A DNA stretch of 64,000 bases from Malacoraja senta (taxonomy: Eukaryota): positions 20,028,001 to 20,092,000 of the forward strand of contig CM075988.1 of the NCBI GenBank assembly GCA_038087875.1, in the 5' to 3' direction. The number at the start of each line of letters is the position of its first letter. Position 1 is the first letter of the stretch. The notes beneath the pieces were generated by a model. That model was not told the DNA's origin. It saw only the letters and a list, made by a program, of their open reading frames with translations, and searched no databases. Below are positions 33,431 through 43,219 of this stretch, in pieces. A program made the translations under genes and the position numbers.

Positions 33431-33889
33431 TGTACATTCTTAAAGATTCAATATCCACTCTCTTTCATGGATACAGAATTTCTAAAGATCACAATCCTTT
33501 ATGAGTGTAGCGGCCGATTTTTATATCGTTCGAGAAATTAACACTCTCACCGCTAAATGGATGAGCATGGTTAAGGGGAATATCTTCGAAACGCATGCGA
33601 GCTCACCCACAGAGACCTTCAGAGCTTCTTCACAGATAAGTCTTCAAACACAGTCTTTTGATCAATAAGTTCTTTATTATTGATGAAAACAATAAAGTAC
33701 ATCCAAACTTCTTCCGACTCGTTACTATAATCTTCATCGAACTCCAGCTTATTACTTTAAACTTTAGAAAACTCCTCGTGTCTCCGTTACACTTCGCATG
33801 ATCTCCTTTACACCTCGCATGTTCGAAGGGTAAACCTTCTCCATGGTCTCTCCAATCTACACTAAAAACTAAACTAAACTAGACTTCTG

Positions 33890-36762
33890 ACGGGCACCCG
33901 AAAAAAGGACCACATCACCCCGATTCTGGCCTCTCTCCACTGGCTCCCTGTGCGGTTCCGAATAAATTTCAAGATCCTTCTTTATGTTTACAAAGCCTTT
34001 AACGGGCTTGCCCCCACCTACATCAAAAGTCTGCTTACCCACCACACCACCTCCAGGTCCCTCAGATCAGCCGACTTGGGGTTACTGAACATCCTAGGCA
34101 TAAGCTCAGGGACGACGGCGCCTTTGCGGTTGCAGCTCCTAGACTGTGGAACAGCATCCCTCTTCCCATCAGAACTGCCCCCTCCATTGACTCTTTTAAG
34201 TCGAGACTTAAAACTCATCTTTACTCACAAGCCCTTTTTGACGTCCTCTGAGGGAGGGCTATATCAAGTCAAGTCAAGTGAGTTTATTGTCATGTGTCCC
34301 TGATAGGACAATGAAATTCTTGCTTTGCTTCACAACAGAACATAGTAGGCATTGACTACAAGGCATTCTATAAATATATACACACATGAATCAATGTACT
34401 GATAAAGTGCAAATAACAGTATTGGCTAATAAAGTTCAGTGTTATGTCCGAGCCAGGTTTAATAGCCTGATGGCTGTGGGAAGTAGCTATTCCTGAACCT
34501 GGTCGTTGCAGTCTTCAGGCTCCTGTACCTTCTACCTGAAGGTAGTAGGGAGATGAGTGTGTGGCCAGGATGGTGTGGGTCCTTGATGATACTGCCAGCC
34601 TTTTTGAGGCAGCGACTGTGATAGATCCCCTCGATGGAAGGGAGGTCAGAGCCGATGATGGACTGGGCAGTGTTTACTACTTTTTGTAGTCTTTTCCTCT
34701 CCAGGGCGCTCAAGTTGCCGAACCAAGCCACGATGCAACCGGTCAGCATGCTCTCTACTGTGCACCTGTAGAAGTTAGAGAGAGTCCTCCTTGACAAACC
34801 GACTCTCCATAATCTTCTCAGGAAGTAGAGGCGCTGATGTGCTTTCTTAATAATGGCATCAGTGTTCTCGGACCAGGAAAGATCTTCAGAGATGTGCACG
34901 CCCAGGAATTTGAAGCTCTTGACCCTTTCAACCATCGACCCGTTGATATAAACGGGACTGTGGGTCCCCATCCTACTCCTTCCAAAGTCCACAATCAGTT
35001 CCTTGGTTTTGCTGGTGTTGAGGGCCAGGTTATTGTGCTGGCACCATATGGACAGTTGCTCGATCTCTCTTCTATACTCTGACTCATCCCCATCAGTGAT
35101 ACGTCCCACAACAGTGGTGTCATCAGCGAACTTGATGATGGAGTTCGCACTATGTCCGGCTACGCAGTCATGAGTATAGAGTGAGTACAGCAGGGGGCTG
35201 AGCACGCAGCCTTGAGGTGCTCCCGTGCTGATTGTTATCGAGTCTGACACATTTCCACCAATATGAACAGACTGTGGTCTGAGAGTGAGGAAGTCGAGGA
35301 TCCAATTGCAGAGGGATGCGCAGAGACCCAGTTCTGCGAGTTTGGTAACCAGCTTGGAGGGGATGATTGTATTAAATGTCGAGCTGTAATCGATGAATAA
35401 CAGCCTGACATATGAGTTTTTGTTGTCCAAGTGGTCCAGAGCGGAGTGGAGGGCCAGCGAGATCGCATCCACCGTTGATCTGTTGTGGCGGTAAGCGAAC
35501 TGCAGTGGGTCCAGGTTTTTGTCGAGGTAGGAATTGATCTGCGTCATGATCAACCTCTCAAAGCACTTCATCACCACAGGCGTTAGTGCCACAGGTCGAT
35601 AGTCATTGAGGCATGTCACCTTACTCTTCTTGGGCACTGGTATAATTGATGCCCTTTTGAAGCAGGTGGGAACCTCAGACCTCAGAAGTGAGAGGTTGAA
35701 AATGTCCGTAAAAACTCCAGCCAATTGGTCCGCACAGGTTTTTAGAACACGACCAGGTATACCATCAGGTCCAGGCGCTTTTCGAGGGTTCACCCCTCTG
35801 AAGGATTTCCTGACATCGGCCTCTGTGACTGAGACTGAAATACCATCACAGCAAATGGGGGCTCGGGAAGGCACATCGGTGTTCTCCCTATCAAAGCGTG
35901 CGTAGAACGCATTGAGCTCATCAGGGAGTGATGTTTCGCCGACATTCGAGCTGCCTCCTAATTTCGACTTGTAAGAGGTGATTGCATTCACGCCCTGCCA
36001 CAGCCGCCGAACATCTGTCTCTTCCTCCAGTTTGGAGCAGAAGTCCCTTTTGGCCTTTTTGATGGCATTACCAAGGTCGTATCTGGACTTCTTGTAGGCC
36101 ACTGTATCATCAGACATGAATGCCCGGTGTCTGGACTTCAGAAGAGTGCGGATCTCAAAGTTCATCCAAGGTTTCTGATTGGGAAACGCTCGGAAGGTTT
36201 TGGTGGGGATGCAGTCCTCCACACACTTCTTAATGAAGTCTGTAACGACTGTGGCGTATTCGTTCAGGTCTGTTGCCGAGTCCTTGAACATTGCCCAGTC
36301 TACAGACTCCAAACAGTCCTGGAGTTGTTCCTCTGCCCCCCCCCCCCCCCCCGACCAGCTCTGTACTGTCCTCACCTCTGGGGGCGCGCTCTTTAATTGC
36401 TGTCTGTAGGCAGGAAGAAGCAGCACCGCGGTATGGTCGGATTTACCAAAGTGAGGGCGAGGGATAGAGCGATAGGCATTCTTGATGGTGGTGTAGCAGT
36501 GGTCGAGGGTGTTTGGTCCTCTGGTGCAGCAGGAGACATGTTGGTGGAAGTTAGGGAGTGATTTCTTTAGGTTTGCCTTAATGTAGTCCCCGGCTATGGT
36601 GGTGAACGCCTCGGGGTAAGACGTCTGGTGTTTGTTTGTATGTATTTATGTACGTACTTAATCTATGAACCAATGTTGTATAATGTAAGTACCTCCACCA
36701 ATGTAAAGCACTTTGGTCAACGGCGTTGTTTTTTAAATGTGCTACAGAAATAAAAGTGACTT
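33890..36762 (+). mobile_element. 5'-truncated L2-type LINE inserted in the BEL 3' LTR, itself split by Rex1
   Basis: ORF2 C-terminus HITPILASLHWLPVRFRINFKILL; 3' tail at 36633-36762; TSD GACTTCTG at 33882-33889 and 36763-36770. Confidence 0.82.
34264..36632 (-). mobile_element. Rex1/Babar-clade LINE, 5'-truncated, with an uninterrupted 655-aa RT ORF (34459-36426)
   Basis: FPNQKPW, LDPLQFAYR, GAPQGCVLSPLLY, FADD, KKAHQRLYFLR motifs; (CTTGA)n tail. Confidence 0.88.
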
Positions 36763-37017
36763 GACTTCTGCTCAAGCTACATAGCCCCAAACACGCCCAA
36801 AAATACGTCATAAATCCCAACCAAAATATAACGGGTAGTCTAAAATTTAAAGGCACATGCCATCATCAATGACATGCAAAACAAGCCAAATGGCCACTAC
36901 ATACCGGCCCATAATTGTTCCGAGTATATAATGAGGCAATTACTAATAAACATCAAAAAAGTAGCCATGAAGGCTTAACATATATCAAAAAGCAAAAGGT
37001 CAGGGAATTGAACCCCG

Positions 37018-37092
37018 TGGCTCCTCGTCAGGAAATTGAACCCCGGTCCACCGCGTGACAGGCGGGGATACTAAACACTATACTAACGAGGG
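37018..37092 (-). tRNA. tRNA-Asp(GTC)-derived copy with encoded 3' CCA inside the BEL element (degenerate, likely pseudo)
   Basis: Minus strand reads CCCTCGTTAGTATAGTGTTTAGTATCCCCGCCTGTCACGCGGTGGACCGGGGTTCAATTTCCTGACGAGGAG-CCA, colinear with vertebrate tRNA-Asp(GTC); D-loop GG lost and a few stem mismatches. Confidence 0.85.
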
Positions 37093-37149
37093 AAAAAATG
37101 CATGCACTATATATCCGCAATCAGAATTCTTCATTGACTCTTCCATCTT

Positions 37150-40100
37150 CACTTTCGCCTTCTAGCAAGCATAACTAGGTTATTAATCTTATTAAAACAC
37201 TGGTTTTAGTTCAAAGTCGTACCGTGTGCACCAAACCCTTAAAATCAGGCATGATACCCAATATATAGTCCAAAACATAATAGTCCAAAGCTTTGATAGC
37301 ATGAAACGTCTTCCTCCATGTCCGATCACCTCATGAATGTGTGGTAACAGCAATGTTGAAGTGTGAAAATCCTTCAAAAGAATAACAGGATCTTAAGCAA
37401 TAAAGTTCACTGTTAGGTTTGATTTAATGTCCGGATCATTAGCAGAGATTTCAAATCCCAGCTCAAGCTTTGGCCATTCTCTGCCTGGCTTACAGAGAGA
37501 TTTTAGTTCTTTGATCCATCTCTTCTCGCTTAAGTAACAGTTCACTGTCAGTTCTCTGGAAACTTCATTTGCAGGATTTTCTTCTGTGTTAACATATTTC
37601 AGTTGTACAACATTAGTAACTCCCAATGCTCTTTCCATTGCCAGATCGACTTTGTCCAAATCCAACTCTCTGGTTTCTTTGGTTCTATCATCTAGTGGAA
37701 TGCTTTCACAATTGTCACTGTTCCACTTGGAAAGTGTGAATCTTCCCTTATTGCAAAGAGAAGTCAGATGTTCTACTGGTTGAATTGCTTCCTGCTCAGT
37801 AGACATGGATTTTAAGCAATCATCCTTGTAGAAATTATTCTTCAAAGAGATTCTTACTTCATGAAATTTAGTATTCTCATCAAACTTGCGTTTCAAAGTC
37901 TGGGTACGTTGCTCTGTCTTACGACGATTATTCGGCAGACTAACACTTTCTTGTTTGAAAGGTAAGTCCACACAATAGTGTCCGTCAGTTTTCACTGAGT
38001 AGTTCATAATATCCATGAACTTCAACTCTTCATTCGACATCTCTTCAGATTCCTTGCTGGTACTTTCCTTGAAATCGTGATTGTATGGCTTCATCACCGG
38101 CTTTTCTAATTTATCAGTAGATATTTGATTAACAGCAATGATAGGATAGTTCTTCTGATTCCTGTTTTCGTGGTTCCTTTTCAAGGAGCCATAAATAACC
38201 CATCCAAGTCGGGTTTTCGTAGGATACGGTCCATCACCTTGGATCCTAACAATCTGTATAGGTTCCAATGCCTTCAAAACATTTGTTCCGATCAGTAGAT
38301 CAACAGTCGAATTTATTTCAGATAACTTGACATCCTTCAGGTAAAGCCATTGTTTCAAGTCTTCATGTCTTGGTATATTTTGATGACCAACAGGCATAGT
38401 TCCATGTGTAAACACGTCAGATATTGGTATGAAATTATCTTCGTCCAAACTGGATATCTCCATACTCGTAATGTAATGACTCATGCTCTCTTTATCTTTA
38501 GTCATGGTACGTAATCGAATCTTAGTCTCTTCTGTGATGTTCAGCCTTCTCGTCAGGTTTTCTGTACAAAAGGTAATCAAACTTCCGTGATGCAGAAAAG
38601 CATGTGTTTGCAACACTGTATTCGTCTTGCTATTCCTTACCTGTACTGGTAAGATAGAAAAATTACAAGCTTCAACCCCGGCCCCAATATGAGCAGTTAC
38701 TTGAGGCAAGGTGATAGCATCACTAGTAGTTGGCTTCTCCTTCTTTTCTGTTTGCTCTGGTTCATCTTCTTCTATTTGCTCTGATAGCTCATCATCCGTT
38801 TGTTCCAGTTCTTCTTCCCAATACTCTGGTAGCTCTTCTTCAGCGTGAAGTGCTTCAGGATGATATTGCCTGCACTTATAACAAATCATAGGACTCTTAC
38901 AGTCTCTCACCATATGTTCTTTTTTCAAACATCCAAAACCGATTCCCTTCTCTTTCAGGAAATCTATCTTGTCTTTATATTCTTTCATCTTGAATCTTCG
39001 ACACCATCTTATGGTGCGACCAACTTCATCACATAACAAACAAAATACTATTTGCTTGCTAGTAGAGACATTTATTTTCATTCCATCTGTCTTTTCCACA
39101 GGTCTGGTTGTGATAGCAAAACTACTTCTCATAGGTTCTGAACTTTCTTCAGTTTCAGTAAAGGTAGAACCTTTGTTAGTTGCAATCGGTTTGTAATCTT
39201 CAATCGTCCCGTAGTGTGGCTCTAACATGTACCATACTTCCCTGTCCAAGAATTTCACCAGGTCTGGTAGCCTGGCTACTTGGTTCTTCTCATCTCTTAT
39301 TTTGCCTGCTTCGTCTCTCCACTTTTCTCTCAGTCTTCTGGGCAACTTGCTATTGATGATTCTAGTATTACTTGCATGATTCATTTCCTCCATGTGGACG
39401 AGATTTCTCATCGAGCTGCAAAAAATCTCTCAGAAATATTGCATAATCACTCAATGCTTCCACATCTTCCGGCTTGATTCCTTTCCAAGCATACATGGGC
39501 CTTCTCCATGTATGCGTTAGTTAGCAAGTCTCTGTTCATCACCAAAACGTTCTTTAAGTAATCTTCTCGCCTTTTTATAGCCTTGCTCTTTCTGACAACT
39601 TTCTACAAGTACTTTAACACTTCCACTTGTGTACTTCACCAGAATTCGTAAGCGCTCTTTTTCATCCGTAACTTTTGTTTCTAATACTTCCTCTAATGCC
39701 CTTACAAAAGCTACATACTGCAAAGGATCTCCACCATACGTAGAAATTTCTACTGGTGGTAGGATGAGAGAAGTATTTTGTCGAGCTATCAATTCGGTTT
39801 GATTTTTCACCAATGCCATTAACCCATCCTGATAACCTTGGCTTGGCTCCACCTGTTGATAAACAAGCCTCTGTGATTCAAATTGGCTTGCTCGAGCCTG
39901 TGCACCAGTCCTCGAAAAAGCGTGGTCCGCTATTGGTTTATCTCGAGCATCCACAGATGCTCCAATAGTAGTTGGTTTCGATCTAGCACTCATTTGCTGA
40001 GATGGTTTCATTCATCTTCCTCTGTTCCAATGGGTTTTCAAAGCCTAGAAATCCGATGGACCTCGATTGTGAAATTGATCCAACTGCTAATTCAATTAGA

Positions 40101-41600
40101 GCAGTTTTTCTTCTTGGTCCTGAGCTCATTGTCTTCGATGATCTAGAGCTGCATCTTGACCCCTCACTTTTCAGTAGCTCCTCCTTTGCTTTGGCCACCG
40201 CCATCTTTGTGTCCATTTCCAGTTGTTCCTTTCATCGCCTCAGCTTCTCTTGCTGTCGCGTCATCTCTTCTTGCTTATGTCGCATCTCTTCTTGCTGTCG
40301 CGTCATCTGTCACGTCATTTCTTCTTGTTCTCGCTTCATCTGTCGCGTCATCTCTTCTTGTTCTCGTGTCATCTGTCGCGTCATCTCTTGATCTCGCGTC
40401 ATCTATCGCGTCATCTCTTCTTGTTCTTCCTCAATCTCATGTTTCTTCTTCATGGCATCCGCCTCTATTGAGAGAGCAGCTAGCTCAGCTTTAACTCCCA
40501 ATCGAGCAGAAGCCCTTGATACCTAACTGGCTGAAGAATCAGATTTATGTCTTGAGCTATCTGAGCTGCTACGGCAGCCTCTGCTGCTGCTGTCGGCTTT
40601 TTTGGCCGCAGACTTTGCAGGCAGTGAAGAAGTCGTGGCCTTTGCCATTCGTAGTTGGGCTACGGGGGTCTTCAACTGAGGCACTTCGTCGCTTGAAGAT
40701 TCTTCAGTACTTTCAGAATCGGACTCGCTATCCGAGCTGGTACCAGCCTCCTTGGCCGCAGGCTTCTGAGTGGCAGCAGCCGCCTTGGCCAGCGTGGGGC
40801 CAGCTTTCGTCTGTGCAATTGTTGTGGCAGATTTTAGGGGTGCGTCTTCATCACTACTGTCTGAGCTGTCATCTGACAAGTCACAGATTTCCATTTCACT
40901 TACTCCTGCGTCTAGTTTCTTCTTGGTCACGCCTGCTTTTCCATTCTGAACTTTGGGAGATGGTACAGCACTATACAAACCTTGTGCTTTGGGTTTCGCA
41001 GGGGACTCATCATCTGAACCGTCAGACTCTTCACTGCTTGAACTTTGAACTTCTATTCTGGCACCTTCCAGCTACTAAGCTCGTAAGTTGTGACATAATT
41101 TCAGAAAACCACTTCTCTGCCTTTTTCATGAAACCAGTGAATATCTTCTTCTTGTCTTCAACCCACTGGGTGTGTCTTCTGCGTTCTTCCCAAGACGGCT
41201 CTGAACACAGCAGTACATCTTGTTTCTTGCCAACCTCCTGGCAGAGGTTCAATAGTTGGCTCATATTAGATTTCACTTTGATCACGTTCTGTTCTGATTC
41301 TATTCGTTTCTTCTGTTTCTCAATTAATCTGGTAACCTGTTTCCACAATTCGTTACTCTCCTTCTCGGTTTCTCTAATGCTGGTAGTATGTGTATTATCT
41401 GTTTCTTCTCGATACACAAGTTTTCTGTAGCTATCAATGGATTCGTTAACTGGTTCCCATATTGAGTTTTCCTCTTTCTTAGTTTCTTTAAGTTGTCTAA
41501 TTGGTCTTTCATCACCATCTCATGGTTCATCTGGCGTGGCTCTTTTTTCTTCTTCTGGATCCATATTTTAAAGAGGTCTTGGCAGGTCGTCAAGTCTTTA
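37150..41600 (-). pseudogene. Degenerate BEL/Pao gag-pol (gag, zinc knuckles, protease, deleted RT/RNase H/integrase)
   Basis: ORF pieces 41324-41593, 41031-41417, 40523-40978, 39983-40216, 39517-40011, 37393-39411 and 37192-37377, separated by stops and frameshifts; protease motif reads FLHHGS (catalytic Asp lost). Confidence 0.88.
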
Positions 41601-42246
41601 CATTTAACGAACAGAATCCTCTGCTTGTAGTTCCAATTTTATTTTGACAACATTTCTTTTCAGAACCATAACATACTGATAATGTAGAGAACATCTCTCC
41701 AACATCCATGTGCTAAAAGATGACGATAATTCAAATGGCATGCGTATCAAAGGATTCATAACAATCCAAGGTCGTTCTACTTTCACCAGACAAGTTTGAA
41801 AAAACACCTTCTGACTCTGTTACAGAAGTCGTTTAAAATTAAAGCTTCGCAGCTTCAAATTCAAAGAATAATAATCGATTTCTACTCACAAATCCTGTGA
41901 TATTGACCAGATAAGTCTTGATGCTGTCGATAGACCTCCAGGCCTTCTCTGGCCGAGATCTATTTTCTTCAGTTCCTCCTGGAACCAATCTTCTGGTTAA
42001 AACCTCTCCGAGAATCTTAGCCAAATCTTCTGTCCCAATCTCTGGGACTGGTATTTTCTTCAGTTCCACGGCTGCAACCAGACATCTGGCTGAAACCTCT
42101 CCGAGAATCTTAGCCAAATCTTCTGTCCCAATCTCTGGGACTGGTATTAAACCCCCCTGCCGGAGGTTCCCTTCGAATTAATCTTCTGTCCCACTCTCTG
42201 GGACTGGTCTTTAACCCCCCCTGCCGGAGGTTACCCTTCGACTTAA

Positions 42247-42745
42247 TGAAGCAGCCGATTTTTATATCGTTCGAGAAATTATCCCTCTAGCCACTAAATG
42301 GATGAGCATGGTTAAGGGGAATATCTTTGAAACGGATGCGAGCTCACCCACAGAGACCTTCAGAGCTTCTTCACAGATAAATCTTCAAAACACAGTCTTT
42401 TGATTAATAAGTTCTTTATTGTTGATGAAAACAATAAGGTACATCCAAACTTCTTCCGACTCGTTACTATAATCGAACTCCAGCTTATTACATAAACATT
42501 AGAAAACTCCTCGTGTCTCCATTACACTTCGCATGATCTCCTTTACACCTCGCATCGTCGAAGGGTAAACCTTCTCCATACTCGCTCCAAACTAAACTAA
42601 AAACTAAACTTCTGCGCAAGCTACATAGCCCAAAACACGCCCAAAAATACGTCATGAATCCCACCCACAATATAACGGGTAGTCTACCATTTAAAGGCAC
42701 ATGCCATCATCAATGACATGCAAAACAAGCCAAATGGCCACGACA
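42247..42745 (-). repeat. 5' LTR of the BEL/Pao element (499 bp)
   Basis: Direct repeat of 33506-33889 plus 36771-36901. Confidence 0.9.
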
Positions 42746-43219
42746 ATGAGTAGAAAACTTCTCATTATCTTGGTATAAAATAGCAACTTTAGAGGCCCTT
42801 ACACTATGCATATGGCTCAATTTAAGGAATCCCATAGCAGGGGGAGCATCCTTCTATTTGTTACCTCCTCAAAATCATGTATATTACTAATATCTAAAGA
42901 AAGGAGATTCAGAGATCATTGTCCCAATCTGCTCATTGTCCCAATCTTTCTTCTTACCAACCCTCTCATTTTAGCACAATCTTTTGTTTTACTTTGTAAT
43001 ATTTTACAGAAGTATTGTCTAGGGTACAGATTGAATTCACTGCTATTATTCTTTCTACAAAATAAAGTGTGCCTACATCCTCTCATGAAATACTTTTGTA
43101 TTTGATCAATTTTCATACATTTAAACACATATCCTAAATGTGGTTCACATAACAAAATAATATTAATTCTAACATTTCACATTAGTTTTTTGCAAATGCA
43201 TAAATCTATCATATTTATA

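Follow-up and report, generated by a model that had tools for sequence, protein, structure and literature searches.

CCA-tailed tRNAs within an LTR element, tRNA promoters within LTRs and tailless tRNA retrocopies are all already known. The Ty3/gypsy retrotransposon cqgypsy_1 of Culex quinquefasciatus, detected as one copy by LTR_STRUC, is described as carrying CCA-tailed tRNA in two tandem units, which stem from two different tRNAs and lie at the border of the LTR and the PBS with a 26-nt duplication; the tRNA was interpreted as a mature molecule captured by reverse transcription (PMC3286476). The Helenus/TRIMp3 elements, described as non-autonomous LTR elements shorter than about 1.3 kb that use tRNA primers, carry a tRNA in both LTRs as a conserved Pol III promoter, spread this tRNA-like sequence and inflate the counts of tRNA genes (PMC10886601). 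The tailless tRNA retropseudogenes of therian mammals are reported as L1-driven single loci, complete at the 5' end and truncated at the 3' end, mostly in a loop, with a duplicated target of 8-35 nt (PMC5322556). A further group of elements, Tf1/sushi, Tcn1 and TAR, which belong to Ty3/gypsy and Ty1/copia, is described as having no tRNA PBS; the sequence that follows the 5' LTR is complementary to part of the LTR itself (PMC6317226).

Here, we analyze a stretch of 64,000 nucleotides of Malacoraja senta DNA (the window), in which a BEL/Pao retrotransposon carries a tRNA-Asp cassette in its 3' UTR. Our preferred reading, to which we give a probability of roughly 0.6, is that a host tRNA-Asp was likely written into the element by reverse transcriptase (RT) in two template jumps and is now probably a functionless and decaying passenger of an element predicted to prime itself. 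The data show the three states of the insertion site, their order on the tree, the greater age of the T-runs, the loss of the B box, and a primer site that does not pair with the tRNA and covaries with the LTR; the enzyme, the jumps and the lack of function are inferred.

The carrier element and its tRNA cassette

The element spans 33506-42745 and is bounded by TG...CA LTRs and a 5-bp target-site duplication (Table 1). Its two LTRs are identical at 473 of 506 aligned nt (93.5%), and its polyprotein is of the BEL/Pao type, the best protein matches (E 1e-201, 52% identity) carrying PF05380, PF03564 and PF18701. The deletions of the RT core, RNase H and the integrase core are common to most of the full-cassette copies that were read end to end, and these copies do not have the complete RT, RNase H and integrase of an autonomous element: the integrase C-terminus is kept in none of 57. 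A LINE and a second fragment interrupt the 3' LTR at 33880-36758, where an ORF (34459-36645) matches RVT_1 and ALKBH8_N; we take this LINE to be Rex1-like. Elsewhere in the element, the 5' leader (41961-42247) is made of 63- and 93-nt tandem units, of which the 63-nt units repeat the primer site, and gag contains a 33-nt tandem array at 40248-40427.

Table 1. Coordinates, in the window, of the BEL/Pao element, its tRNA cassette and its candidate priming sites
Feature	Position	Strand	Basis or remark
Target-site duplication, 5 bp, upstream copy	42746..42750	.	LTR/TSD analysis
5' LTR	42247..42745	-	
LTR segment pairing with the primer site, candidate self-primer	42557..42568	-	12 Watson-Crick pairs
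Non-tRNA primer site, +5 to +16 after the 5' LTR	42231..42242	-	complementary to own LTR
Broken gag-pol remnant, BEL/Pao type	37121..41520	-	without RT core, RNase H, integrase core
Stop codon, integrase C-terminal frame (pol end)	37121..37123	-	28 nt before the tRNA
T-run 5' of the insert	37093..37098	-	single T5-6 run of empty sisters, here on both sides of the insert
tRNA-Asp(GTC) body	37021..37092	-	ARAGORN; Rfam 41.4 bits; 65/72 nt identical to host gene
Genome-encoded CCA	37018..37020	-	absent at 15/15 host gene loci
Second T-arm, tRNA nt 49-67	36999..37017	-	putative relic of an earlier, 3'-truncated capture
Two downstream T-runs (36994-36997 and 36987-36991)	36987..36997	-	in empty sisters too (ancestral 3' UTR)
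Polypurine tract (PPT) position	36902..36914	-	not tRNA-Asp-like in the window family
3' LTR, first piece	36759..36901	-	133/143 nt identical to 5' LTR
3' LTR, second piece	33506..33875	-	340/363 nt match; split off by later insertions including a LINE
Target-site duplication, 5 bp, downstream copy	33501..33505	.	LTR/TSD analysis

About 115 nt separate the tRNA from the 3' LTR downstream. The inventory given in the first-pass annotation is borne out, with a tRNA-Asp(GTC) called by ARAGORN and Rfam, an encoded CCA, a second T-arm and two T-runs, all on the minus strand; the pol stop, however, is separated from the tRNA by 28 nt and not by the ~60 nt stated there, and the T-runs are no part of the cassette, as both occur in sister elements without a tRNA. 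The tRNA body departs from the host gene at 7 of 72 nt, with G19, G43 and C61 changed to T and G69 to A. The 116-nt cassette folds no more stably than its shuffled versions (z -0.45). Insertion of a tRNA-derived SINE into the element was ruled out, since neither a SINE body nor a tail follows the tRNA head and the insert, of about 70 or 98 nt, is purely tRNA sequence. In the neighboring 3' UTR, positions 36961-36968 are partly complementary, across the PPT, to the start of U3 at 36890-36897; the letters of this pairing vary between subfamilies and relatives (L257-L278), and it may be a stem enclosing the PPT.

A pattern search of the genome gave 20 matches, 15 of them host tRNA-Asp gene loci and 5 copies of the element. 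The CCA is encoded at none of the 15 host loci, and its junction is intact in 42 of 56 full copies of the cassette. The absence of CCA from the host genes supports the earlier proposal that a mature, CCA-tailed tRNA was captured via reverse transcription, and the cassette would thus be a retrocopy of mature tRNA-Asp. The same proposal had dated the duplication of the T-arm to a time after divergence from the host tRNA, on the ground that both arms share the non-canonical changes TTCA and CTGA. TTCA is in fact the host allele, found in the loop at all 15 host loci and in the 5 element copies as well (a search for the TTCGA form gave 0 matches), and CTGA, the product of C64T, is a coincidental CpG decay that is found in the first arm of 3 of 56 copies and in the second arm of 51 of 56. 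The dating therefore fails; indeed in one copy of the element (L033) all 72 nt of the tRNA body agree with the host gene, and the second arm is already there. No host tRNA-Asp gene with A69 was found. The host genes themselves occur in repeated clusters with tRNA-Met and tRNA-Lys (L040-L046 on contig C14; L037-L038 on C5). A practical consequence concerns genome annotation: ARAGORN calls Asp in 22 of 30 element copies, and the cassette in this way introduces false tRNA-Asp genes.

Three states of the insertion site and their order

The query with the window, for which 40 of 884 candidates were scored, returned 30 loci, and the cassette is present in all 30 of these best copies. This collection of family members, a check proposed at first pass, places the cassette at a fixed position family-wide and speaks against a one-off insertion. 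Wider searches brought the number to 95 distinct loci, which are samples from similarity searches and biased as such, and among which 30 are empty, 8 short and 57 full. The short form consists of tRNA nt 1-67 followed by the T-run, without CCA. In the empty sisters the flanks are the same and neither T-run is missing; in the carriers a copy of the first T-run borders the insert at each end. At default score, the 3' UTRs of four full-length empty sisters gave no full tRNA; matches obtained at relaxed score in other BEL families of the same genome looked spurious and were discarded, and a search of IMG/VR gave no relatives. The idea of a young burst was likewise abandoned: many identical junctions on small contigs have common flanks and are segmental copies of one insertion, and such copies were excluded from all copy tables. 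Many small contigs hold the same decayed insertion together with its flanks (L217-L229, L232), which seems to have been copied as part of a large tandem or segmental repeat.

In a tree of the flanks only, the carriers form one side of a branch with support 100/96; the short copies form a clade (83/72) and short and full are unpolarised. When the LTR is added to the flanks, together with three further short copies, the first four carrier rows to branch off are all of the short form, and a branch with support 100/99 subtends every full copy. By LTR, later short copies whose integrase end is intact fall among the full ones, and a clade of full copies only is rejected (p-AU 3e-5). Left out of the trees were L213 (a long branch) and copies with interrupted LTRs; L216 and L166 were relabelled upon inspection. 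We read this as an order from short to full, with helper and derivative later exchanging sequence; given the short copies nested among the full ones, there is also recombination or deletion between the arms. Since the earliest carriers are short and the full ones later, an older partial copy has most likely left the second T-arm behind. This reverses the order of events first proposed, the extra arm most likely being older than the full tRNA.

None of the 28 sampled copies with a preserved integrase C-terminus (8 short, 20 empty) has the CCA end, which is therefore not needed for replication. A restriction of the short form to autonomous copies was considered and dismissed: it held in 8 of 8 short copies, but these had come from an integrase query, and a targeted search found 4 more short loci (3 distinct) that lack the integrase end and in which the internal deletions are already present. 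The empty sister lineage also has integrase-deleted derivatives (L147-L156), and thus non-autonomous spread needs no tRNA.

The preferred reading supposes two steps. In the first, RT engaged in minus-strand synthesis would leave the U-run, copy the tRNA from nt 67 to nt 1 and return to the U-run, the product being the CCA-less short form with a T-run on both sides. In the second, which would take place in an internally deleted derivative, RT would copy the old arm to nt 48-49, switch to a mature tRNA-Asp at its CCA end and copy this as well, so that tRNA 1-76 would come to be followed by the old arm. Helper elements likely assisted the multiplication of this derivative, in whose source lineages the changes at G43, C61 and G69 and those of the old arm would then have been fixed. 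In zebrafish embryos tRNA-Asp-GTC is reported as the most abundant tRNA (bioRxiv 10.1101/2024.01.30.575011), which makes its capture by chance plausible.

Against an account with two BEL-made jumps, step 1 could equally be a tailless retrocopy produced by a LINE. The first, CCA-less insert would then have been made in genomic DNA, with the T-run as its target duplication, and only the second step would be due to the BEL element; the outcome would be the same passenger. LINEs are present within the window, and the insert resembles the tailless retropseudogenes (PMC5322556) in that its 5' end is complete, its 3' end truncated and a T5-6 run duplicated around it. These are, however, described with much longer target-site duplications (8-35 nt), mostly loop truncation, L1 dependence and a therian setting, whereas here the duplication is a homopolymer of 5-6 nt, of a kind that also arises through re-annealing of RT, and the cut lies in the acceptor stem (nt 67). 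We consider this version of the events improbable.

Decay of the promoter boxes and priming of the element

Changes found in at least 4 copies affect 8 of 72 sites of the tRNA and 13 of 158 sites of the UTR flank (p=0.47), and are no rarer in the tRNA. In early copies the tRNA is identical to that of the host. An A box, the T-run and either one or two B boxes are found in the early full copies, and among the short copies the A box is present in 8/8 and the B box in 5/8; early copies with intact boxes could be transcribed. The B box is lost altogether from 21 of 56 full copies and from all 13 of the latest-branching. The Rfam scores are 61.5 and 49.8 bits in early copies and 29.7 and 27.2 in late ones, with 59.5 for the host. 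Changes at G43, C61 and G69 and at arm positions 50, 56 and 57 are clustered on the tree and hence inherited; C61T, which is found in 23 of 24 later-branching copies, requires 3 changes on the tree versus 14.5 when shuffled.

A Pol III small RNA or an insulator had been suggested at first pass. On this view the element would retain the cassette as a Pol III unit, which would produce a TMER-like small RNA or act as a TFIIIC insulator shielding the 3' LTR. The boxes of the early full and the short copies would be in keeping with it, and Helenus is described as keeping tRNA boxes in its LTRs (PMC10886601). Against it stand the decay of the A and B boxes in replicating lineages, with C61T inherited and the latest copies all without a B box, the T-runs that are older than the tRNA, and the position of the cassette outside the LTR, from which it cannot drive the genomic RNA. 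We hold a retained Pol III unit to be very improbable: replication continued without the promoter, and a Pol III role is not supported as a retained function. The converse idea of a selection to disarm the promoter was also rejected. Six of the eight common changes fall at box positions (p=0.003), yet G19 and arm position 61 are unclustered; with the inherited set only, the comparison becomes 3 of 18 versus 2 of 57 sites (p=0.09), and is confounded by a TT-adjacent context.

The changes at G19 form a pattern of their own. This base is changed in 24 of 56 full copies (43%), to T in 13, to A in 10 and to C in 1. The changes are unclustered (16 on the tree versus 17.5 shuffled, 44 rows) and differ within sister pairs, and in the same GGTT context G53 is changed in 3/56 copies and the arm in 1/56. 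All 11 short copies retain G19 (p=0.005; p=0.27 when these are compared with the early full copies alone). One host gene (L042) bears the same G19T change. A study of zebrafish tRNAs describes misincorporation by RT at positions 20-20b, caused by an acp3-type modification, in several tRNAs among which Asp is not named (bioRxiv 10.1101/2024.01.30.575011). The changes at G19 would be errors of RT beside a modified D-loop, formed only when the acceptor stem can close; the alternative is a hotspot at the DNA level. The hotspot suggests that genomic copies may record the RNA modification of a tRNA fold within a long transcript.

The first-pass annotation had further supposed that the element may encode its own tRNA primer for the minus strand, and had proposed that complementarity to the PBS be computed. 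A full tRNA with CCA in an element without a normal PBS might invite this reading, and Cer7, a BEL-like element of C. elegans, reportedly encodes its primer tRNA, in the form of a tRNA gene that matches its own PBS. In the window family this match fails. A TGG start is found at 0 of 29 readable 5' ends; the primer site pairs no better than shuffled sequences with the host tRNA-Asp in 11 of 11 copies (p 0.10-0.72) or with the element's own 3' UTR in 11 copies (p 0.06-0.86); and anywhere in the leader the match to the CCA end is at most 7 nt (11 copies). The site covaries instead with the LTR, and does so in an empty sister (L124) as well. We regard a self-encoded minus-strand primer as hardly credible.

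The primer site pairs, from +5 on, with a fixed segment of the LTR near nt 180. The pairing is found in 25 of 36 copies and in three compensatory states, one of them a double transversion, the copy counts of 14, 6 and 5 representing two compensatory events. In addition to L124, it is present in 6 of 9 distant rows (two of them near-identical), and at most 1 in 100 shuffles is as good. From this covarying pairing of site and LTR, which we take as the signature, the BEL/Pao element is predicted to prime itself in the manner of Tf1. Loci with the signature, in which the compensatory changes fall between subfamilies, are the window (Table 1), L124, L284, L293, L295, L325 and L334. A text search of the BEL/Pao surveys PMC554778 and PMC3118150 found no mention of tRNA or PBS; the priming of BEL/Pao elements, not discussed in these two surveys, would become directly testable if the motif of the distant clade described below were functional.

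An Asp-like tail in a distant clade, and the comparison with known systems

Against a mere passenger, an independent and distant BEL clade has an Asp-like 3' half at the same place and with the same G69A, which a purely neutral history does not predict. In the window family G69A is found in 23 of 24 later-branching copies, with no A69 host gene found. The distant material consists of 80 BEL loci from metagenome contigs, 57 of them with a readable tail. No full tRNA was found in the 80 loci by ARAGORN and blastn; an Asp-like 3' half occurs just after the pol stop in 19 of the 57, L319 being the closest to the tRNA (L319:6275-6318, L297:10315-10358, L288:9989-10032 and 16 more loci). In this set, which was chosen by eye ahead of testing, 17 of 19 motif loci reach p<=0.02 against shuffles versus 1 of 38 others, and the median alignment score is 29 for Asp versus 15-17 for Ala, Met and Lys genes; the tRNA-Asp used in the comparison need not be that of those loci's own hosts. 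The motif loci belong to one RNase H clade (100/99) that is apart from the window family, where they make up 19 of 22 scored rows; the three rows without the motif have long branches and another type of PPT. The nearer relatives of the window family are without the motif. At the LTR border, the PPT of the motif clade ends in GAGCCA in 16 of 19 loci (3 unread) versus 0 of 38 others and matches the last nine bases of the tRNA. The motif has A69 in 13 of 14 families, which makes it a perfect match to tRNA nt 1-6, and the PPT has G69 in 13 of 13. No cis partner strand was found near the motif. This tail hints at a possible role for tRNA-Asp in BEL elements.

Such a role can be formulated as follows. 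Self-priming BEL/Pao elements would use no tRNA for the minus strand and would recruit tRNA-Asp as a working partner at the 3' end; the A69 copy of its 3' strand in the UTR would dock the 5' end of the tRNA, open the acceptor stem and free the CCA end, which in one clade could prime plus-strand DNA at the identical "PPT". The cassette of the window family would be a fresh re-acquisition of the docking site, and the closeness of tRNA-Asp would account for its having been written into one and the same place of the UTR in both lineages, and on two occasions in the window family; the hotspot at G19 would arise at each jump, when RT misreads the host-modified tRNA fold in the genomic RNA. This conjunction draws on the single clade, the scores, the GAGCCA ends, the A69 and G69 pattern with no nearby cis partner, and a window family that fixed the same G69A and lost the consensus of its T-loop. 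Against it, the PPT of the window family is not Asp-like and the sampled copies with an intact integrase end are without the 3' strand. The motif set was picked by eye, its stem has frequent mismatches, and the predicted duplex with nt 1-9 of the host tRNA exceeds the tRNA's own stem in strength at only 3 of 15 loci. Moreover G69A is one event. The likeness may also be partly generic, as a hairpin with GGGGAG is found at the PPT of other BEL families here, and a generic likeness may merely favor accidental jumps onto tRNA-Asp. Taken as a whole, we consider this partnership doubtful. The families in question (L054, L059, L065, L080; about 1790-1900, element-oriented, same genome) have directly before the PPT a hairpin ending in CGGGGAG that resembles the T-arm and the acceptor strand of tRNA-Asp; L059 scores 25 with Asp and 14-17 with controls.

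Searches of the literature, for the most part open-access papers and without Repbase, returned no description of a tRNA in a BEL/Pao 3' UTR or of tRNA-primed plus strands, and passages of PMC8220671, PMC3601003 and PMC4810235 gave nothing on this cassette. Were the distant motif functional, tRNA-primed plus-strand synthesis would be a mode of priming not found described in the literature searched. As a passenger, which is the reading that we prefer, the cassette would offer a clean fossil series (empty, truncated, CCA-tailed, decayed) of the capture of a host tRNA by an LTR element.

Like cqgypsy_1, the window family carries a CCA-tailed tRNA inside an LTR retrotransposon; unlike it, the carrier is BEL/Pao, the tRNA lies in the 3' UTR, one tRNA species was likely captured twice, and the family is multi-copy with its intermediates preserved. 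With Helenus/TRIMp3 it shares the spread of tRNA-like sequence by non-autonomous LTR elements, but the tRNA is internal, its boxes decay and the element is several kb long; membership in that group was rejected, there being no tRNA promoter inside the LTRs and no conservation of the A and B boxes. The short form recalls the tailless tRNA retropseudogenes and differs from them in that its amplification took place within an LTR element and that a probable second capture lengthened it. In common with Tf1/sushi, Tcn1 and TAR, there is pairing between the LTR and a site just downstream of the 5' LTR; here the element is BEL/Pao and the pairing begins at +5.
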